Source: Candidatus Uhrbacteria bacterium RIFCSPLOWO2_01_FULL_47_25 (GTDB lineage Bacteria > Patescibacteriota > Patescibacteriia > GWA2-46-9). From it: 64,000 nucleotides of DNA. The stretch spans positions 8,566 to 72,565 of the forward strand of contig MGEK01000004.1 in assembly GCA_001791325.1 (NCBI GenBank). Direction: 5' to 3'. Position numbers and translations under genes: made by a program. How positions within the stretch are numbered: the first letter of the stretch is position 1; the number at the start of each line of letters is the position of its first letter. Below, in pieces: positions 21,361-32,970 of this stretch. The notes below the pieces were generated by a model, which ran no database searches, was not told the origin of the DNA, and saw only the letters and a list, made by a program, of their open reading frames with translations.

Positions 21361-21516
21361 GAATATGGAATATTGAATATGGAATATAGGGATGTGCTGT
21401 GAAGAATATGGAATATTGAATATGGAATATAGGGATCGTTGATTTGAGAAAATTAATTGAAGAATATAAAATTTAGAATATAGGGATCGAACGGTGGAGA
21501 ATATTGAATATACATT
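21361..21516 (+). repeat. promoter-proximal block: (GAATATN)4 - 15 bp - (GAATATN)4 - spacer - GAATATAAAATTTAGAATATA - GGGATCGAACGGTGGAGAATATTGAATATACATT. It is near-identical to 26901..27056
   Basis: Direct comparison: 21389-21516 is identical to 26929-27056; the first heptamer arrays differ at 2 positions. Confidence 0.85.
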
Positions 21517-22953
21517 ATGAAAAGTGAGATTAAGTCATTTAGAGATTTGGTGGTATGGCAAAAAGCATCTGCTTTGGCAACTTTGCTGTATAAAGTTACG
21601 GAAAATTTTCCTAAAACAGAAATATATGGAATAACAAGTCAGATGCGACGGGCAGCGGTATCGGTTTCTTCTAATATTGCCGAGGGATTTAAAAGAAATT
21701 CAAAAAAAGAAAAAGTGCAGTTTTATTCAATGGCTTATGGGTCTCTTTCGGAATTGGAAAGTCAAATAGAAATTTCTTTTCGTCTGGAATATTTAACAAT
21801 TACTAACTACGATCAAATTTTATCCGCAATCAACGAAGTTTCTCGACTCCTAGACGGTATTATTAGGTCCACTAATAGAAATTATCAAAGTAGGTTTGAT
21901 GTTCTCGTTGCTGTATCTATATTCTATATTCTATATTCTATATTCCCAATCTCACCGGCTAATGCTGGTGAAATTGGTCTGGCTGTCACAAGAAACCGCT
22001 TTGATATTGAGATGCTCTCGGGCGACACATACAAGGGTGATTTAGCCGTGTATAATAAATCAGCAGACGCCGCCTTGCCTGTGCACGTGGAATTGGCGCT
22101 CTGGAACATTAAAGAGGATTCTGAAGATATTGAGTTTGTTCAAGCGGAGTCATTGCTTAATGCCACACGTTGGTTTGAGGTTCAGCCGAAAGATTTTATT
22201 TTAGACCAAGGCGGCGATAGGCAAATTAAGTTTGAGATCACGGCTCCCAAAGACGCTTCGCCCGGAGCGTACTTGGTAATGATGCGTTTTCAGGCGGTTT
22301 TGCCGGAACATTATTTTTTGAAAGAAGGTCCAAGATTTTTGCCCGAGATTGGCGTTTTGTTTTTCATCAATGTCAGAACACTGGCCATTGACAGCGCGGC
22401 AGAAAATAATCGCTTAAATATCGTTTCATTTGAACCCGAAGGGACGCATCGCTTAACTTTTATTGACCGTTACGTGGTAAGTCCTGCCAATGCTGGCGTA
22501 TTTGACGAAGCAGTAAAAAAATTAGTGGCTAAAATTGAAAATAAAAGCATCTATTATTTTAAAGCCTCCGGCTTTGTCGTTATTAAAAACTTGTTTGGCC
22601 AGACAGTGTCACTCATTAAAATTCCCGAAAAATTTTTACTTCCCAACCGTACTCGCAGCATCCCCATCACCGTTATCACACCACCAACGGAACAATCAAA
22701 ATCCAATATTCTATATTCCATATTCTATATTCTTCAACAACAAACATACCTCGGCCCCTACACCGCGACACTAACGCTCAACGTTCCATCAAGCAATGGG
22801 GGAGTAGAGCCAATTTCAGAATCAATCAATTTCTGGATTATCCCATGGAAGTTTTGGTCGGCCGTTATTATTATAGCGTTGTTAATCGCGTTCATTATAT
22901 TAAAATTGCGGCGTCGGCTTCGGCCGGCACTAAGTGCGCTGATCGGACGCTGA
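21517..22953 (+). CDS. four-helix-bundle (23S rRNA IVS protein / Avd-like) domain fused to TM segment, DUF916-like surface domain and C-terminal TM anchor
   Basis: N-terminus FRDLVVWQKA...FPKTEIYGITSQMRRAAVSVSSNIAEGFKRNS matches the TIGR02436/PF05635 signature. Downstream WFEVQPKDF...VPKDASPGAYLVMMRF and the terminal hydrophobic helix + RRRLR resemble CscA/DUF916 proteins. Confidence 0.7.
   Translation: MKSEIKSFRDLVVWQKASALATLLYKVTENFPKTEIYGITSQMRRAAVSVSSNIAEGFKRNSKKEKVQFYSMAYGSLSELESQIEISFRLEYLTITNYDQILSAINEVSRLLDGIIRSTNRNYQSRFDVLVAVSIFYILYSIFPISPANAGEIGLAVTRNRFDIEMLSGDTYKGDLAVYNKSADAALPVHVELALWNIKEDSEDIEFVQAESLLNATRWFEVQPKDFILDQGGDRQIKFEITAPKDASPGAYLVMMRFQAVLPEHYFLKEGPRFLPEIGVLFFINVRTLAIDSAAENNRLNIVSFEPEGTHRLTFIDRYVVSPANAGVFDEAVKKLVAKIENKSIYYFKASGFVVIKNLFGQTVSLIKIPEKFLLPNRTRSIPITVITPPTEQSKSNILYSIFYILQQQTYLGPYTATLTLNVPSSNGGVEPISESINFWIIPWKFWSAVIIIALLIAFIILKLRRRLRPALSALIGR
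21918..21945 (+). repeat. (TATATTC)4 heptamer array inside the CDS at the 4HB/TM junction (inverted relative to the upstream GAATATN arrays)
   Basis: Read directly; encodes IFYILYSIF. Confidence 0.85.
22705..22732 (+). repeat. second (NATATTC)4 heptamer array inside the same CDS, just before the C-terminal TM anchor
   Basis: AATATTC TATATTC CATATTC TATATTC. Confidence 0.8.
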
Positions 22954-23030
22954 ATATGTGGAACGCTGAATTTACGCTGATAACGACGCTGATCGGACGC
23001 TGAATATGTGGAACGCTGATATTTACGCCG
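22936..23030 (+). repeat. array of about 8 ACGCTGA/ACGCCGA heptamer units (two 45-bp direct repeats) overlapping the last codons of the preceding CDS and ending 1 bp before the GxxExxY start
   Basis: GCGCTGATCGG ACGCTGAATATGTGGA ACGCTGAATTT ACGCTGATAACG ACGCTGATCGG ACGCTGAATATGTGGA ACGCTGATATTT ACGCCGAATGG. Confidence 0.85.
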
Positions 23031-23031
23031 A

Positions 23032-23463
23032 ATGGATATGAACAAGGTTAAGGATTTCTTGTATGAAAAGGAGTCGTATCAGATTAGAGGAGCGTGTTTT
23101 GATGTTTATAAAGCATTTGGTGGAGCATTTAAGGAAAAAATAGTGGATCGGGCGCTTACTAAATCTCTGGCTAAACGCGGATTAAAAGTGGACGAACAAA
23201 AACGTATAAACATTTTGTATGATGGTGAAAAAATTGGTACCTATATTCCCGACAAAATCGTAAATGATGCTATTATTTTAGAAGTGAAGGCAAAAAGTTT
23301 TATCACCAAAGATGATATAGATCAATTTTGGAAATATTTGAAAGGGTCAGACTATAAATTAGGATTCCTTGTAAATTTCGGTCCGGCAAAATTAGAAATA
23401 AAAAGAGTGGTATATGATTCAGCCAGACCAGTTCGGCGTGTTTCGGCGTCCTTATCGGCGTGA
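23032..23463 (+). CDS. GxxExxY family protein (PD-(D/E)XK nuclease-like)
   Basis: YEKESYQIRGACFDVYKAFGGAF...LEVKA...FLVNFGPAKLEIKRV: the family's diagnostic motifs. Confidence 0.75.
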   Translation: MDMNKVKDFLYEKESYQIRGACFDVYKAFGGAFKEKIVDRALTKSLAKRGLKVDEQKRINILYDGEKIGTYIPDKIVNDAIILEVKAKSFITKDDIDQFWKYLKGSDYKLGFLVNFGPAKLEIKRVVYDSARPVRRVSASLSA

Positions 23464-23506
23464 ATCAGCGTTTATATCAGCGTATTCATCAGCGTAAGTC
23501 GGCGGT
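23428..23506 (+). repeat. array of TCGGCGT x3 + TCAGCGT x3 + TCGGCGG (reverse complement of the upstream ACGCTGA/ACGCCGA array), overlapping the GxxExxY 3' end
   Basis: TTCGGCGTG TTTCGGCGTC CTTATCGGCGTG AATCAGCGT TTATATCAGCGT ATTCATCAGCGT AAGTCGGCGG. Confidence 0.85.
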
Positions 23507-23613
23507 ATTATGGTTATCCACAGGCGGGCTTGTGTCAATTCTATTACTTTTATGATATAATTCATTCAATATTAATAAGTCCTAATTATTAAAAATCGTA
23601 ATTCATTCTAAAT

Positions 23614-24882
23614 ATGGTCAAAAAACTACGCAAATATCAACGATTTACAGTAGTTTACGTTTTAATTTTTTCAATAATAACTTTCTTTTCGGGCGCGCAT
23701 ATTTGGGGGCTGTTGCCGCCAGCTCGTGCGGCTGCTCTCACCAGTGTGAAAGACGTGCTCTCGACGTCAGAGTCGGGCGCCAACGCGAACCATACAATTC
23801 AGTTCGTAACTCCTTCAGGAGTACTACTCTCAACCCATACAGTGACACTCACATTTGACGGCTCACCATTGTTTGACGTTAGCGGCCTTGATGAAGATGA
23901 TGTGGATATGAGCGAAGACACTACGGGTGATATTGGCGATTGTGGCTCATTTGCTACGGCTAAGACCACTATAGCTGGAGCACCTGACGGCACCAACTGG
24001 GGTGTTACTTTCTCCGGTCAGACCATTGTATTCACACATCCTTCTGGTGATGATAACCAAGACATTGCCGCCGGTGCGTGTGTTCAGATAAGGATCGGCG
24101 ATGGTACTGTGGCTATGGACTCAGGCACGGGCGATGCTCAGATTAATAATCCGGCTGGTAACGGCGATGGTGTGGCTGAAATTGAAACAATTGACATTGC
24201 CACCGATAGCACCGTAGACGACAGCGGCACAGCTATGACCGCCACCGTAGAGGGTGTGGCCGTGAGTGTTACTGTTGATGAAAGTTTAGCCTTCTCTATA
24301 GCGGTCGTAACATCCGGTAACTGTACAGAAGGCGGAGGCGGGACCGCGGTTACCACGACAGCAACAACCGTGCCGTTTGATAGTATCGCGCTTGCCGTGA
24401 ACACTTTTTATAGAGGTTGCCATGATTTGACGGTGAGCACTAATGCGGCAAACGGCTATACCACAACTGTCGAAGAAAATAAAAGTTTAATTCGCACCGG
24501 TACTGATGGGGGCGACAAGACAATCAATGATGCTATTTGTGATGCGGGTGACGACTGTACCTCGGCCATTGGTGCTGGGACGACGTCGCCTTGGGCCACG
24601 GCCACTGCCAATCACGGTTTTGGCTATACATGCAGTGGCAGCGCTTGTGACGCTGCTTTCGCTACAGCTGCTGAATTTAATGCCTTTCCTTGCCGTAGTT
24701 CAACAGCGTCAGATTGTGATCCTGTTGATGGACCACTGGCTCTGGCTACCCCGATTTCGTCAGGAGGAGTTCCCGTCAGTGCTCAAACTTCAAGAATTGT
24801 ATACAAGCTTTCGTTTTCCGCCACTCAACCGGCTGGAACTTACGGTAACACTATTACCTATATAACAACCCCGACATTTTAG
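23614..24882 (+). CDS. secreted surface protein with WxL-like C-terminal domain (CscB/CscC-like)
   Basis: Signal peptide/TM at N-terminus; C-terminal ~100 aa align with the giant protein's C-terminus (HGFGY...AGTYGNTITYITTPTF vs CGFGY...AGPYQTTIIYIVTPQF). Confidence 0.55.
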   Translation: MVKKLRKYQRFTVVYVLIFSIITFFSGAHIWGLLPPARAAALTSVKDVLSTSESGANANHTIQFVTPSGVLLSTHTVTLTFDGSPLFDVSGLDEDDVDMSEDTTGDIGDCGSFATAKTTIAGAPDGTNWGVTFSGQTIVFTHPSGDDNQDIAAGACVQIRIGDGTVAMDSGTGDAQINNPAGNGDGVAEIETIDIATDSTVDDSGTAMTATVEGVAVSVTVDESLAFSIAVVTSGNCTEGGGGTAVTTTATTVPFDSIALAVNTFYRGCHDLTVSTNAANGYTTTVEENKSLIRTGTDGGDKTINDAICDAGDDCTSAIGAGTTSPWATATANHGFGYTCSGSACDAAFATAAEFNAFPCRSSTASDCDPVDGPLALATPISSGGVPVSAQTSRIVYKLSFSATQPAGTYGNTITYITTPTF

Positions 24883-25904: not shown

Positions 25905-25974
25905 AGAATATAGAATACAGAATCTAGAATAGAGAACTTGGAACATGGAATTTAAAACATGGAATTTAAAACAC
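25905..25974 (+). repeat. ten tandem 7-bp units (AGAATAT AGAATAC AGAATCT AGAATAG AGAACTT GGAACAT GGAATTT AAAACAT GGAATTT AAAACAC) between the CscA-like gene and the dockerin gene. The dockerin gene start codon lies within the array
   Basis: Strict 7-bp periodicity read directly. Confidence 0.8.
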
Positions 25975-26900: not shown

Positions 26901-27056
26901 GAATATGGAATATAGAATATTGAATATAGGGATGTGCTGTGAAGAATATGGAATATTGAATATGGAATATAGGGATCGTTGATTTGAGAAAATTAATTGA
27001 AGAATATAAAATTTAGAATATAGGGATCGAACGGTGGAGAATATTGAATATACATT
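26901..27056 (+). repeat. second copy of the promoter-proximal block (heptamer arrays + 128 bp identical to 21389-21516)
   Basis: Direct comparison with 21361-21516. Confidence 0.85.
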
Positions 27057-28595
27057 ATGAAAAGTGAAATTAAGTCATTTCGAGATTTGATAGTTTGGCA
27101 AAAATCTTCCAATTTAGCAACTTTAATATATGGCATTACTAACGATTTTCCCAAGAGCGAAATGTATGGTTTGACCAGTCAAATGCGCCGAGCTGTTGTA
27201 TCAGTTTCATCTAACATTGCAGAAGGCTTCAAACGAAACTCTAGAAAGGAGAAGGTACAATTCTACACAATGGCCTATGGTTCTCTTTCAGAATTAGAAA
27301 GCCAGATTGATATTTCAAAAAATCTTCACTATTTATTGGAAAGCCAATACCAAACAATAATTGAGGCAATTAACGAGGCGTCAAGGCTTTTGGACGGTAT
27401 TATTAGAGCCACTAACAGAACTCACAACGATCGTTTTTTTTCGCCTGCCATCTCTGTACTACTTGCCGTTGCGATCTCTGTATTCTATATTCAATATTCT
27501 ATATTCCCAACAGCGCCTGCCGGCGCTGTTTCGTCCGTGCGGCTTTTTTTTATTCCGGAAAATTCCGAGGTCGTTGCCGGTGATATTATAAAAAGTGACA
27601 TTTGGGTAGACACGCAGGGAAATACTATCAATGCGGTGGATATTAGTGTTTCTTATGATTCAATGGTTGAGCTTTTAAGCGCGGAGAAAAATGATTCAAT
27701 TTTGAATTTATGGGTTGAGGAACCGAGCTTTTCCGATACTACGCGCCGCGCTAAATTTACCGGCGGCCGTACTGGCGGGTTTGAGGGTCGGGGAATAATT
27801 GGGCAGTTGTATTGGAGAAATGAAAACGCCGGGGGAAAAGCAACTTTAGGCTTTGATGAGTCGTCTGTTGTTTTATTAAATGATGGATTGGGTACTCCAG
27901 CGGAGCTAGAGAGACGACAATCGGATTATAATATATTGGCCAAGGGAGAGGGTTTATTGAATTTATCTTCGGCCTCGCACCCGGATGAAAATAAATGGTA
28001 TAATCAGCCGTTTGTGCGTTTAAGTTGGCCGACAATAGAAGGCGCGATTTACAGCTATTTAGTTACGAGGGATCCGGCTCAACTACCAGATGACACGTTG
28101 GACGAGCCAGTAGGCAATATTAAGCTAAGCGACCTGACGGACGGCGTATATTATTTTAAGCTTAAACAAAAAAAACTCGGCGAAGAAGGGTGGTCCAGTG
28201 TTGTTTCCAGACAAATTAAAATTGACAAAACGCCGCCGGAATTTATTGAGGCAAAGATTTCACGTGATTCGGAACTTGTTCAAAATAAGTATTTCGCGAG
28301 CTTTGCCGCTAACGACAAGGCATCTATAGCTCGTTATGAAATAATTGAAGGGGATAGCGCTCCGGAGCCGATATTGCAGCCGCCATTTATTTTAAAAAAT
28401 CAAGATAGAAGCGTGGCCGTTACAATTAGAGCCATTGACGCGGCCGGTAATTACAAGGACATAATTATACCGGCCCTGACTTGGTGGCAAAGGCCGTCAA
28501 TTATTTTATATGTGAAAATAGGGCTTATTGTCGGGCTAGCTCTAATTGCAGCGGTGATAATAATTGTGATTATCAGGAGAAAAAAATCAATATAA
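27057..28595 (+). CDS. four-helix-bundle (Avd/23S-IVS-like) domain fused to TM, cohesin-like domain, Ig-like domains and C-terminal TM anchor
   Basis: N-terminus FRDLIVWQKSSNLATLIYGITNDFPKSEMYGLTSQMRRAVVSVSSNIAEGFKRNS. Cohesin-like INAVDISVSYDSMVELLSAE...LWVEEPSFSD. (TATATTC)4 at 27479-27506. Terminal TM + RRKKSI. Confidence 0.65.
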   Translation: MKSEIKSFRDLIVWQKSSNLATLIYGITNDFPKSEMYGLTSQMRRAVVSVSSNIAEGFKRNSRKEKVQFYTMAYGSLSELESQIDISKNLHYLLESQYQTIIEAINEASRLLDGIIRATNRTHNDRFFSPAISVLLAVAISVFYIQYSIFPTAPAGAVSSVRLFFIPENSEVVAGDIIKSDIWVDTQGNTINAVDISVSYDSMVELLSAEKNDSILNLWVEEPSFSDTTRRAKFTGGRTGGFEGRGIIGQLYWRNENAGGKATLGFDESSVVLLNDGLGTPAELERRQSDYNILAKGEGLLNLSSASHPDENKWYNQPFVRLSWPTIEGAIYSYLVTRDPAQLPDDTLDEPVGNIKLSDLTDGVYYFKLKQKKLGEEGWSSVVSRQIKIDKTPPEFIEAKISRDSELVQNKYFASFAANDKASIARYEIIEGDSAPEPILQPPFILKNQDRSVAVTIRAIDAAGNYKDIIIPALTWWQRPSIILYVKIGLIVGLALIAAVIIIVIIRRKKSI

Positions 28596-30020: not shown

Positions 30021-30126
30021 AGAATATAGAATATTGAATATGGAATATGGGTATTGAACCGCGAAGAATATAGAATTTAGAATATGGGTTTGAAATTAGA
30101 AGATATAGAATTCAGAATATAGGTGT
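30021..30126 (+). repeat. heptamer arrays (AGAATAT AGAATAT TGAATAT GGAATAT; AGAATAT AGAATTT AGAATAT; AGAATTC AGAATAT) upstream of 30127
   Basis: Read directly; same family as 21361-21431. Confidence 0.8.
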
Positions 30127-31527
30127 ATGAAAAGCGAAATTAAATCGTTTAGAGATTTGATTGTGTGGCAGAAGGCAGCCGCCCTTGTGTTGATCGCTAT
30201 ATTCTATATTCTATATTCTATATTCCCAATCTCGCCAGCTAACGCTGGCTCTGCCTCACTCTCATTGGTTTCCTCAAAGCGAACTTACACCGTCGGCGAA
30301 AATGTCGCGGTTAGCGTTATTTTGAGCACGGGAGATGTTAGCATTAACGCGGCAAGCGCTACGATTACGTTTGACCAAAAGAAGCTCTCAGTAGTAAGCG
30401 TTTCTCGTTCCGGTTCAGTCTTCACTTTATGGGCGGAAGAACCAACCTTTTCAAATTCTCAAGGAGTAATTAGTTTGGGCGGAGGGTTGCCAACGCCGGG
30501 TTTTTCCGGTAGGGGAGCGATTATTATCAGAATTACTTTTCGGGCAAAAGAAGAAGGCACAACGGCTGTCAGATTTGCCGGCGGAACGGTTTTGGCGAAT
30601 GACGGACTGGGCACTAATGTTTTAGCAGGACTCACTGGTCTTGATTTAACTATTCAGGGAAGGGCGGTCGTTACAACGCCGCCGGAGAAACCCCTAGAAA
30701 GAGCGCCGGTTGTTACCCCACCAGGTCAAGTGCCGTTGGCGCCGGTTATTTTGTCGCGTACGCATCCTGACGAGTCTGGTTGGTATCGCAATGCCCAGCC
30801 GGGTATTATTTGGGAATTACCGTCTGATGCTAAGGGAGTAAGTGTTAGTATTGATCAAAACGCGAATGGTGATCCCGGCACAACCTCTGAAGGGCTATTT
30901 AACTTTTACAGCGCCAAGGAGCCGCTTAAAGATGGCGTTTGGTACGCCCATGTCAGGGTAAGCAATAGTCGCGGTTGGGGGGCGATTGGTCATTACCGCT
31001 TAGCTATTGATACCGCGCCGCCGATGATTACAACGGCAAAATTGGTGTTTGAAGCAGCCAGAACCAAGGCCATAGAATTTGCCACTAGCGACCCCTTATC
31101 ATCAACCGACTATGTATCTATTTTAGTCAATGGAGAACAGGTCGCCTCGCAAGCTAGCTCGCCATACACCTTACCGTCATTAATTCCCGGCAATCATGTG
31201 ATTACAGTAATAGCCTATGATAAAGCAGGCAATAAAGCGTCCCAGGATCTCTATTTGAGCATTTTGAGCCAAGAAATATCAAGCGCGCCAAGAACAAGTC
31301 TTTTAATCATTATCATTCTTATTCTCGCCTTGATTTTGCTGGTTATATTTATCATCTGGCACTTCTATGAACGCCATCATCGCCGGGCCATTTTGGAAGA
31401 ATTAGCCAAAACCAGGCGAGAGCTTAAAGGAATGTCGCAAAAGTTACGCTCACTGGAGGGTAAATTAAATGCCCATGCTAATGCAAATGTCAGTGAAAAG
31501 TCCCAAACAACAATTAAAAAAATATAG
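30127..31527 (+). CDS. cohesin-like-domain surface protein whose N-terminus retains only the first ~19 codons of the 4HB module (MKSEIKSFRDLIVWQKAAA) joined directly to the (TATATTC)4-encoded TM segment
   Basis: Compare MKSEIKSFRDLIVWQKAAALVLIAIFYILYSIFPISPANAG with the 21517 protein; heptamer array at 30198-30225; cohesin-like ATITFDQKKLSVVSVSRSG...LWAEEPTFSNSQG. Confidence 0.65.
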   Translation: MKSEIKSFRDLIVWQKAAALVLIAIFYILYSIFPISPANAGSASLSLVSSKRTYTVGENVAVSVILSTGDVSINAASATITFDQKKLSVVSVSRSGSVFTLWAEEPTFSNSQGVISLGGGLPTPGFSGRGAIIIRITFRAKEEGTTAVRFAGGTVLANDGLGTNVLAGLTGLDLTIQGRAVVTTPPEKPLERAPVVTPPGQVPLAPVILSRTHPDESGWYRNAQPGIIWELPSDAKGVSVSIDQNANGDPGTTSEGLFNFYSAKEPLKDGVWYAHVRVSNSRGWGAIGHYRLAIDTAPPMITTAKLVFEAARTKAIEFATSDPLSSTDYVSILVNGEQVASQASSPYTLPSLIPGNHVITVIAYDKAGNKASQDLYLSILSQEISSAPRTSLLIIIILILALILLVIFIIWHFYERHHRRAILEELAKTRRELKGMSQKLRSLEGKLNAHANANVSEKSQTTIKKI

Positions 31528-32259: not shown

Positions 32260-32319
32260 TACGAAAATACGAAATAATACGAAAGTACGAAATTGATCTT
32301 GACTTACGAAAGTACGAAA
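32260..32319 (+). repeat. six TACGAAA units with 8-10 bp spacing
   Basis: Units at 32260, 32268, 32278, 32286, 32305, 32313. Confidence 0.7.
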
Positions 32320-32322
32320 AGA

Positions 32323-32970
32323 TTAGATTTCTTTTCTATTAAGGAAAGCGCTTTGCAATGTTGCTTCATCCGCGTATTCCAGCCGTGAGCCAGTGGGCAG
32401 GCCTCTGGCTAGACGCGTAATTTTGATTTTAGTTGGTTTTAATAGTTTGGCTAAGTATAAGGCCGTGGCGTCTCCTTCTAAATTGTTATTAAGCGCTAAA
32501 ATAATCTCAATAATTCCGTCTGATTTAATTCTTTCATAAAGCTCTTTAAATCTAAGCTGTTTAGGATTAATGCCCTCAATTGGGTTAAGTAGGCCCCCTA
32601 GCACAAAGTATAGCCCGTGGTAAAGATTTGTTTGTTCAATGGGAAAAATATCGCGCCCTTCGGCAACCACGCATAATTCCATCTTGTTTCTTTTGACATT
32701 ACCGCATATAGAGCAGATTGATTTCTCGCTAAATTGTCCGCATTGTTTACAGGCAGTGACTTGTTTGTGAAGATTTAAAATTGAAGTAGCCAACAGCGCG
32801 GCTGTTTCTTGTTTGCCTTGCAACAGCGAAAAGGCAAATCTTTCCGCGGTACGGCGTCCAATGCCGGGTAAAACCATAAAGGCTTCAATGGCGCGACGTA
32901 ATGGTTCTGGATAGCGAGACATACCCCGTATATCAACATTCATAGGCAAACACTGCACGGCGTTTGCCAA
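32323..32970 (-). CDS. recR: recombination protein RecR (probable true start at Met 17, near 32922)
   Basis: YPEPLRRAIEAFMVLPGIGRRTAERFAF; C4 zinc finger CKQCGQFSEKSICSIC; Toprim domain. Confidence 0.85.
   Translation of the reverse strand: MANAVQCLPMNVDIRGMSRYPEPLRRAIEAFMVLPGIGRRTAERFAFSLLQGKQETAALLATSILNLHKQVTACKQCGQFSEKSICSICGNVKRNKMELCVVAEGRDIFPIEQTNLYHGLYFVLGGLLNPIEGINPKQLRFKELYERIKSDGIIEIILALNNNLEGDATALYLAKLLKPTKIKITRLARGLPTGSRLEYADEATLQSAFLNRKEI

Follow-up and report, generated by a model that had tools for sequence, protein, structure and literature searches.

Inverted arrays of 7-nt repeats enclose a GxxExxY-family gene from Uhrbacteria and many of its relatives

Among the closest described counterparts of the element that we discuss here are the intervening sequences (IVSs) of 23S rRNA genes. 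In Coxiella, the IVS has an open reading frame (ORF) of the 4HB family in the loop of a 28-bp stem that is cleaved by RNase III (PMC4990558). Two to three tandem GACAGAT heptamers, whose number varies between strains, precede its ATG (PMC4990558). The origin and mobility of rRNA IVSs, and the functions of the 4HB/S23p and GxxExxY "IVS-protein" families, have been open questions since about 1990. Here, we consider a 570-bp segment of the genome of Candidatus Uhrbacteria bacterium RIFCSPLOWO2_01_FULL_47_25, which lies within a stretch of 64,000 nucleotides that we analyzed (the window; contig MGEK01000004.1, positions 8,566 to 72,565). In this segment, which we call the cassette, two inverted arrays of 7-nt units (the arms) enclose a single gene, which encodes a 143-amino acid GxxExxY protein with a PD-(D/E)XK motif (Table 1). 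On balance, we think that the segment is a selfish and horizontally spreading insertion, similar to a foldback element, and that the inverted arrays are its ends.

The cassette, its gene, and its family

A motif search confirmed the arrays that an initial annotation of the sequence had placed on both sides of the gene. The 570 bases of the cassette hold 13 of the window's 33 exact matches to ACGCYGA, where about 0.1 would be expected. For the full 64 kb, the expectation is about 13.4 matches; the remaining 20 are scattered singles that form no second cluster. The orientation split is perfect, with 7 forward and 0 reverse matches upstream of the gene and 0 forward and 6 reverse matches downstream. 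Some details of the annotation need to be corrected. The two 45-bp direct repeats that it had described upstream of the gene are really a 50-bp tandem duplication in which 33 nt are identical; this duplication is absent from a sister species (L068, also from Uhrbacteria), which has six units in its 5' arm. Also, the arrays were said to overlap the ends of both neighboring coding sequences. This is true of the preceding gene, a 478-amino acid surface-protein gene whose last 6 codons and stop codon lie within the cassette. The 3' arm, on the other hand, overlaps only the last 10 codons of the GxxExxY gene itself (its first three units, TCGGCGT, fall within the ORF), and the next gene starts 108 nt beyond the arm.

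The protein matches the profiles TIGR04256 (GxxExxY; 102.1 bits, with a cut-off of 35, across model positions 2-116 of 116) and PF13366 (PDDEXK_3; 104.7 bits, with a cut-off of 22). Across 26 homologues, the residues of the PD-ExK motif (P73, D74, E84, and K86) are invariant, and so is E35. The motif that gives the family its name is degenerate in the subfamily of the window's protein, which has G31-AFKEKIV; the member from Treponema has GFLEAVY. In the AlphaFold model, whose predicted local distance difference test score is 82.7, residues ~10-130 are folded as an alpha-beta PD-(D/E)XK domain and the tail that is encoded by the array (residues 131-143) is disordered. This tail is variable among homologues, whose C-termini (YQR, ISV, or KSA) correspond to TCAGCGT read in three frames. 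We did not find a sequence homologue of the protein among solved structures, and a Foldseek search with the model gave only weak, generic matches to PD-(D/E)XK proteins (E of at least 1e-3).

To see how far the arrays go with the gene family, we surveyed 80 homologous GxxExxY loci from species-representative genomes. The density of NCGCBGA is 16.7 per kb in the 130 nt upstream of these genes, and that of its reverse complement is 13.9 per kb immediately past the domain. In the wrong orientation, the density is 1.2-1.3 per kb, and the background is ~1.0 per kb, so the enrichment is about 15-fold. We also used a test that does not depend on any given motif: a locus is positive if some 6-mer is present two or more times upstream and its reverse complement two or more times downstream. 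By this test, 70% of 74 GxxExxY loci are positive, as compared to 8% for the direct orientation, 27% if arms are swapped between loci, and 1% for random segments of the same loci. In other words, flanking arrays of the kind that the initial annotation had noticed at one gene are found at most of the tested loci, and the refutation that it had allowed for (other GxxExxY loci that lack such arrays) did not come about.

The architecture can be described from 33 cassettes. Their units repeat with a period of 10-12 nt and there is a median of 4 units per arm; the window's cassette has the most (8 and 7). The 5' arm ends no more than 13 nt from the start codon in 23 of the 33, and the 3' arm starts at codon 130-137. 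The outermost units are unlike the inner ones, and are CCGCNGA at one end (25 of 33) and TCNGCGG at the other (20 of 33). The proposal that this is a cassette with defined ends that are built of inverted heptamer arrays is supported.

The inner units are usually ACGCTGA/TCAGCGT or ACGCGGA/TCCGCGT. More distant members of the family have CACGGAA/TTCCGTG or GCTGA/TCAGC instead, and these occur in genome bins that were assigned to Planctomycetota, Hydrogenedentota, Desulfobulbaceae, Elusimicrobia, or Bacteroidales, as well as on a plasmid of the cultured bacterium Treponema saccharophilum. One locus (L092) has arms of the TACGAAA type. A copy from a Fusobacteria plasmid has no clear arms, so the design is not universal in the GxxExxY family. 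The unit type tracks the relatedness of the proteins in 29 of 34 loci, and the majority unit types match between the two arms (T-A in 17 of 46 loci, G-C in 17, and G-U in 4). The gene and its arms are inherited as one unit, and the arms stay complementary. We also noticed an extra outer inverted repeat, ATAGAAGCGGAT...ATCCGCTTCTAT, beyond the heptamer arms in several loci from Omnitrophota (L042-L045 and L050-L052). And two loci from one genome bin (L041 and L049) have identical 5' arms of the ACGCGGA type but differing 3' arms (TCCGCGT and TCAGCGT, respectively), which suggests that cassettes have recombined within the ORF.

The cassette is inserted DNA at the 3' end of a surface-protein gene and ahead of the promoter-like site of the next gene. 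The initial annotation had called for a comparison with empty sites in related strains, and syntenic empty sites are present in related Patescibacteria: the surface-protein operons of L089 (with a 155-nt spacer) and of L090/L091 (with a 191-nt spacer) have the same gene order, and their upstream genes, with no GxxExxY gene beside them, end without an ACGCTGA array. This argues against the array being kept for the sake of the surface protein. In the sister species L068, the cassette is present at this site too, with other unit numbers (6 upstream and 8 downstream); there, the stop codon of the neighboring gene comes from the terminal unit, CCGCTGA. The number of units changes quickly, presumably by slippage or duplication. 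For example, a strain variant that is 97.7% identical (L177) has ~4 units in its 3' arm instead of 7. The window's GxxExxY arms do not qualify as a contingency locus for phase variation; across the strain contigs L003-L008 they are alike save for single substitutions in L004 and L007.

Other observations point to insertion and mobility as well. The G+C content of the ORF is 33.8%, as compared to 43-50% in the neighboring genes. Homologues that are 70-80% identical to the GxxExxY protein are spread across classes of Patescibacteria, while the best homologue of the neighboring 422-amino acid protein from outside of the host organism is just 56% identical. Derivatives that lack the ORF exist as well: we found six array hairpins without an ORF in the flanks of the surveyed loci. 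In L092 (2700-3400 and 4488-4830), an ORF-less TACGAAA...TTTCGTA element occupies the site that is orthologous to that of the window's cassette, and one gene upstream of this site there is a GxxExxY gene that is flanked by TACGAAA. The TACGAAA units are direct on both sides of this gene, and inverted TTTCGTA units lie farther downstream, where they overlap the start of the next gene. That the cassette is mobile and spreads horizontally, with the arms as integral ends, is well supported.

Copies inside other genes and 4HB cassettes

Many of the best cluster representatives of the family are fusions of the GxxExxY domain. Fusions are overrepresented in this set, as stand-alone proteins fall together into a small number of clusters at 50%. 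In an unbiased set of 78 genome loci, 67 copies stand by themselves, 9 continue into the gene downstream, 2 are open on the upstream side, and 0 are internal. Nevertheless, insertions into other genes, in frame, do exist. According to Pfam, the domain lies in RecG between motifs II and III, in the G domain of LepA, inside RtcB, GatB, and AsnB, just before the editing domain of LeuRS, inside GT4 glycosyltransferases, and ahead of prepilin methylation motifs. In RecG, LepA, RtcB, GatB, AsnB, LeuRS, and the GT4 enzymes, the insertions sit in loops. For recG (L179), GT4 (L180), and leuS (L181), we verified the arms at the DNA level, and they use unit types that are free of stop codons (ACGCAGA and ACGCGGA). 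We read the junction of the recG copy: the frame of the host gene is kept, there is no stop codon, and the cassette's own start codon is absent. There are also array hairpins without an ORF, in frame, within the GT4 gene of L180 and within gatB (P0232).

In four loci of the Doudnabacteria type, the ORF appears to be in frame with a type IV pilin and to replace its leader. We translated two of these (L029 and L034), and the GxxExxY ORF reads through the 3' arm into a type IV pilin-like protein (..AEQG/FTLMEIVV..). Judging from this junction, a nuclease in the position of the prepilin leader would be released by the prepilin peptidase.

The window also contains three 4HB cassettes, one of them decayed, with GAATATN arrays upstream and ATATTC arrays downstream, and the initial annotation had suggested that they share the design of the GxxExxY cassette. 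This holds for the arrays in the window and for other loci: of 76 metagenomic 4HB loci, 71% are positive in the motif-free test, as compared to 4-16% for the controls. The heptamers of the 4HB cassettes are strictly tandem and vary by locus (GAATTA, GATTTA, TAGTAT, GTATTG, GAAGCT, GAGACA, and others), and they always match between their two arms. Because the 4HB cassettes encode no nuclease and their heptamers vary by locus, the idea from the initial annotation that the nuclease-like protein acts on its own flanking arrays is weakened as a general rule.

The first 4HB cassette in the window is in frame with the signal peptide of a surface protein, and the remnant of the decayed one now reads as an ordinary-looking signal peptide. 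At all three, ATATTC arrays encode the hydrophobic core (FYILYSIF) of the signal peptides of the downstream proteins. The related locus L089 has an ordinary signal peptide at the site of the first 4HB cassette and a decayed remnant at the site of the second. In a strain variant (L006), two TCTATAT heptamers are missing from the downstream array of the first 4HB cassette (21916-21929 of the window). If there are four units, the 4HB ORF continues in frame into the surface protein, which gives a 478-amino acid fusion; if there are two, it is TTG 21899 or ATG 21902 (MFSLLYLYSIFPISPANA/GE) that shares the frame of the surface protein, and the 4HB ORF ends alone. From these reading frames, the downstream array looks like a phase-variation switch for surface-protein genes. 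In L068, a distant GxxExxY gene with ATTAGTG repeats on its flanks (positions 41-640) forms an in-frame fusion with this surface protein. It occupies the site of the window's 4HB cassette, and this site is a hotspot for both types of cargo.

Other arrays in the window may be remnants of cassettes. An ATATTC array at 22706-22733, inside the 478-amino acid coding sequence, encodes SNILYSIFYIL and is conserved in L068. An AGAATA array lies at 25905-25931, between the genes for proteins of 314 and 311 amino acids. Separately, six units of TACGAAA, which is the heptamer of L092, lie at 32260-32325 between the convergent genes L21 and recR, with no inverted partner.

Just beyond the 3' arm is TTATCCACA (23514-23522), which is present in a single copy in the window, 6 nt ahead of a -35-like hexamer. 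It fits the DnaA-box consensus. We considered whether this might be part of the cassette and rejected the idea, as it is present in the empty sites too and follows just 4 of ~159 cassettes. Since L068, L089, L090, and L092 have conserved it at the corresponding position, it is a motif of the host's promoter region and lies outside of the cassette. Nor is an intrinsic terminator behind the 3' arm a general rule, as it is present in just 5 of 45 loci.

Table 1. Positions of the cassette, of its parts, and of related features. Positions are those of the window unless a locus (L) is given.
Feature	Position	Strand	Details
GxxExxY / PDDEXK_3 gene	23032..23463	+	143 amino acids; G+C 33.8%
PD-ExK codons	P73 D74 23248-23253; E84 23281-23283; K86 23287-23289	+	
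5' arm	22936..23031	+	8 units; spacing 11-16 nt; ends directly at ATG
Units of the 5' arm	GCGCTGA 22936; ACGCTGA 22947, 22963, 22974, 22986, 22997, 23013; ACGCCGA 23025		
3' arm	23433..23505	given on +	7 reverse-complement units; spacing 10-12 nt
Units of the 3' arm	TCGGCGT 23433, 23443, 23455; TCAGCGT 23465, 23477, 23489; TCGGCGG 23499		TCGGCGG is terminal
50-bp tandem duplication in the 5' arm	22937..23036	+	33 nt identical, 22937-22969 = 22987-23019
Last codons of the preceding gene (SALIGR) and TGA stop	22933..22953	+	encoded by the first two 5' units
Predicted long interrupted stem that encloses the ORF	22929..23514 (outermost pair)	+ (sense transcript)	fold of 22925-23515
Host sequence outside the cassette	23514..23561	+	TTATCCACA, then promoter-like GTGTCA-18-TATAAT; precedes the 422-amino acid gene that starts at 23614
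4HB cassette 1	21361..21945	+	GAATATN arrays 21361-21515; ORF from 21517; ATATTCT array 21916-21945
4HB cassette 2	26901..27506	+	GAATATN arrays; ORF from 27057; ATATTC array 27487-27506
Decayed 4HB cassette	30022..30225	+	both arrays and the first ~20 codons left
In-gene copies or hairpins, loci	L179 2860-3410; L180 601-2277; L181 1-520		recG; GT4; leuS
In-gene copies or hairpins, proteins			P0213, P0223, P0227, P0232, P0217, P0210
Read-through into pilin	L029 3001-4146; L034 2995-4137; also L033, L037		proteins P0187, P0189, P0193

Proposed mechanism and rival explanations

How might such a cassette persist? A Shine-Dalgarno-like motif precedes the ORF in just 1 of the 33 cassettes, and the upstream neighbor is co-directional with the cassette in 45 of 46 loci, as compared to a baseline of 83% (P = 0.002). 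Given that the cassette lacks a ribosome-binding site and nearly always has the direction of the upstream gene, it is probably transcribed by read-through from that gene. In a context that is not translated, the arms would then be expected to pair into a long stem around the ORF, as in the IVSs of 23S rRNA. RNase III would probably cut this stem and detach the RNA of the cassette from the host's message, and the cutting would keep the expression of the nuclease low. More speculatively, the nuclease, whose catalytic residues are intact, might make a DNA break that enables copying into new sites, and it might cut either at the arms, as hairpins or cruciforms, or at target sites.

The arms do seem able to pair. 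The minimum-energy fold of the whole cassette pairs them in 31 of 33 cassettes, and spacers increase the complementarity in 25 of 33 loci (P = 3e-5). In an alignment of the 17 cassettes that could be aligned, 94.9% of the cells are paired across the three innermost helices. The score for covariation is 0.160, as compared to 0.045 ± 0.012 for shuffled alignments (0 of 500 reach the actual score) and at most 0.044 for slid controls; one spacer pair shows AU, CG, GC, and UA. For the window's cassette, the predicted fold has z = -4.78, and 0 of 100 shuffles are equally stable. Its sense strand folds better than its antisense strand (-104 versus -78 kcal/mol). The start codon is paired in 24 of the 33 folds, and we judged, without a control, that this is not clearly above what any RNA would give, so we do not argue that the start codon is sequestered.

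Several points weigh against our reading. First, the only ORF in the cassette encodes the PD-(D/E)XK protein (PF13366), rather than a transposase or recombinase of the DDE, HUH, serine, or tyrosine type. Second, we saw neither a target-site duplication nor a target consensus across 46 loci (copies of the Planctomycetota type have TTAA at both ends, but this sequence is a palindrome by itself), and among the loci that we compared there was no filled and empty pair that is close enough to decide whether the target site is duplicated. Third, the window has a single copy of the ACGCYGA-type cassette, and we found no relative of the close GxxExxY subfamily in viral contigs. Fourth, there is no rRNA in the 64-kb window, 0 of the 80 GxxExxY loci have an rRNA gene within 3 kb, and we did not find an rRNA-borne copy. 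The initial annotation had stated that GxxExxY genes occur inside rRNA IVSs, and these loci do not bear this out. In a survey of insertions in rRNA from Patescibacteria (the candidate phyla radiation), the 4HB domain is listed and PDDEXK is not mentioned.

The remaining points against it concern the stem. In the window's cassette, the spacers add no complementarity (z = +0.56). The unequal unit numbers of the arms (8/7 in the window, and 6/8 and 8/~4 in relatives) indicate that exact pairing is not maintained. The preference of the GxxExxY arms for the sense strand is modest (a mean of -4.2 kcal/mol, P = 5e-4), the arms of 4HB cassettes have no such preference (P = 0.92), and the unit counts are symmetric overall between the two arms. 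We had considered the asymmetry between sense and antisense as proof of a role in RNA, and because of the last two results we now view it as weak evidence. A search with an RNase III query sequence found no such gene in the 64-kb window or in the loci, which is uninformative for a sample of this size. The formation of the stem and its cutting by RNase III are predicted steps. The copies inside translated genes also argue that the existence of the arms cannot everywhere be due to an RNA stem, and that the arms belong primarily to a DNA element rather than to an RNA device.

A broader reading can be put forward only tentatively, and we would not be surprised if it were wrong. GxxExxY and 4HB genes might be the cargo of a single widespread and unrecognized class of selfish "foldback cassettes" in prokaryotes, with the PD-(D/E)XK protein as a mobilizing, structure-specific nuclease. 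The IVSs of rRNA might then be copies that landed in rRNA, while others might occupy intein-like niches without any splicing, such as conserved loops of RecG, LepA, RtcB, GatB, and LeuRS and the leaders of pilins or signal peptides. The copies might be tolerated because their arms are free of stop codons if they are translated and are removed by RNase III if they are not.

We think it unlikely that the cassette is purely an RNA-level module. In that case, the sole role of the arms would be to make a stem of double-stranded RNA (an IVS moved into an mRNA), RNase III would excise the RNA that bears the ORF, and any mobility of the DNA would be due to unrelated processes such as general recombination. 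The stability of the window's fold, the pairing of the arms in nearly all of the folds, the covariation (including spacer positions), and the better folding of the sense strand of GxxExxY cassettes would all be expected. The Coxiella IVS provides a precedent, and an arm that abuts the start codon, with no Shine-Dalgarno motif, fits as well. However, recG, lepA, rtcB, and gatB contain cassettes or ORF-less arrays in frame, where cutting of the stem would destroy the message. Also, the two arms differ in their number of units; the terminal CCGC...GCGG units and the conservation of the units across phyla exceed what pairing needs; and 4HB arms have no strand asymmetry.

It is less plausible still that the arrays are operators or iterons, whose units, about one helical turn apart, would bind the GxxExxY protein or a host factor, either to regulate the gene or to mark both ends for cutting, so that the pairing of the arms would be irrelevant. 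This would account for the period of 10-12 nt, for the conservation of the unit's core across phyla (ACGCTGA, ACGCGGA, or CACGGAA), for the correspondence of unit type to protein relatedness, and for the window's spacers, which do not add to the complementarity. But it would not explain why spacers covary and add complementarity at most of the other loci, and 4HB cassettes are built alike from strictly tandem heptamers that vary by locus. Furthermore, the arms of L049 carry two different types of unit.

We give little credence to an intron-like element that depends on a protein, in which the stem would join the flanks, the PD-(D/E)XK protein or a host enzyme would cut the RNA, and an RtcB-like ligase would rejoin it. 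As with inteins and introns, conserved sites in conserved housekeeping genes are hit, and the fold search gave weak matches to tRNA-splicing endonucleases (E of at least 0.16). On the other hand, the in-gene copies stay in the host's frame without stop codons, and the recG copy has no start codon of its own, as if they were translated through; the catalytic residues are of the type found in metal-dependent DNases; and the window's copy is not within a gene. Finally, chance, or repeats in coding sequence that are kept for protein reasons, can practically be dismissed: two units do encode the tail of the upstream protein and three encode the tail of the nuclease, but the enrichment and the split in orientation far exceed what chance would give, the upstream gene's homologues have no array where the cassette is missing, and the tail is disordered and variable, with the heptamer read in all three frames.

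Comparison with known systems

The initial annotation considered the mechanism to be undescribed. This is partly so: heptamers before the start codon of a 4HB gene were already noted in the Coxiella IVS (PMC4990558), while we did not find a description of inverted arrays that are associated with GxxExxY genes. More broadly, in searchable papers on GxxExxY/PF13366, on heptamer repeats in the candidate phyla radiation, and on the short tandemly repeated repetitive (STRR) sequences of cyanobacteria, we did not find this association of gene and array. The cassette and its relatives are a defined and repeatable element, for which the arms, the boundaries, both filled and empty sites, derivatives without an ORF, and copies inside genes are at hand. 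The design is found in many phyla, including in the cultured T. saccharophilum, and the 15-kDa protein is amenable to direct tests. There is also a practical issue for annotation: gene callers fuse the cassettes to surface proteins, pilins, and housekeeping enzymes, which creates spurious "multidomain" proteins.

Some known systems resemble the cassette in one or two features. The STRR sequences are intergenic tandem heptanucleotides of unknown function. They share tandem heptamers in intergenic DNA with the cassette, but they are not described as inverted pairs that bracket a gene. The foldback transposons of Drosophila have long terminal inverted repeats that are made of short tandem repeats, with a variable number of units and an optional coding center, as the cassette does, but they are eukaryotic, are at the scale of kilobases, and encode unrelated proteins. 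In the REPIN-RAYT system, the RAYT is a single-copy HUH/Y1 enzyme, and the repetitive extragenic palindromic (REP) sequences are palindromes of ~35 nt that are scattered in hundreds of copies. Here too, a nuclease-type gene goes with inverted repeats that form hairpins, and the repeats also occur without the gene, between genes and at gene ends. The window's protein is from PF13366 and not from the Y1 transposase family, though; ORF-less copies of the GxxExxY cassette appear to be rare; and the ACGCYGA arrays in the window are only the cassette's own.

Homing endonucleases and inteins are likewise small nuclease genes that spread horizontally, and relatives of the cassette lie at conserved sites of recG, lepA, rtcB, gatB, and leuS. 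PD-(D/E)XK homing enzymes, such as I-Ssp6803I, do exist. But the GxxExxY cassette has no Hint or splicing domain and no intron RNA, and the window's copy is intergenic. [quoted passage not shown] Unlike an insertion sequence, the GxxExxY cassette encodes no transposase.

The Rickettsia palindromic elements (RPEs), which are MITE-like, are palindromic selfish DNA that is found in frame in unrelated genes and is translated (PMC10969869). ORF-less hairpins of the GxxExxY family are likewise in frame in the GT4 gene and gatB, and insertion into surface loops is a further shared feature. In-frame insertion of this kind is seen in relatives of the cassette (L179, L180, L181, P0223, P0227, and P0232), while the window's copy only overlaps the last 6 codons of its neighbor. 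RPEs differ in that they are ~150 bp long, have no nuclease gene, and have arms that are not made of short tandem units. The autonomous form of the GxxExxY cassette carries a 130-amino acid domain, with no target-site duplication seen.

The IVSs of 23S rRNA, as in Coxiella and Leptospira, are similar in several respects (PMC4990558). There are differences: the window's cassette lies outside of rRNA genes, its ORF encodes a PD-(D/E)XK nuclease, its arms have no more than 8 spaced units (10-12 nt) rather than a near-perfect stem of 28 bp, and the cutting by RNase III that has been demonstrated for the IVS is predicted for the cassette. But both have an ORF from a small family in the loop of a stem that is formed by terminal inverted repeats. 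In both, the start codon is immediately preceded by tandem heptamers, whose number varies between strains. Both have a lower G+C content than their host and a patchy distribution, and both are suspected of horizontal transfer. And 4HB genes, which are the cargo of the IVS, are found in the window in cassettes of the same design.

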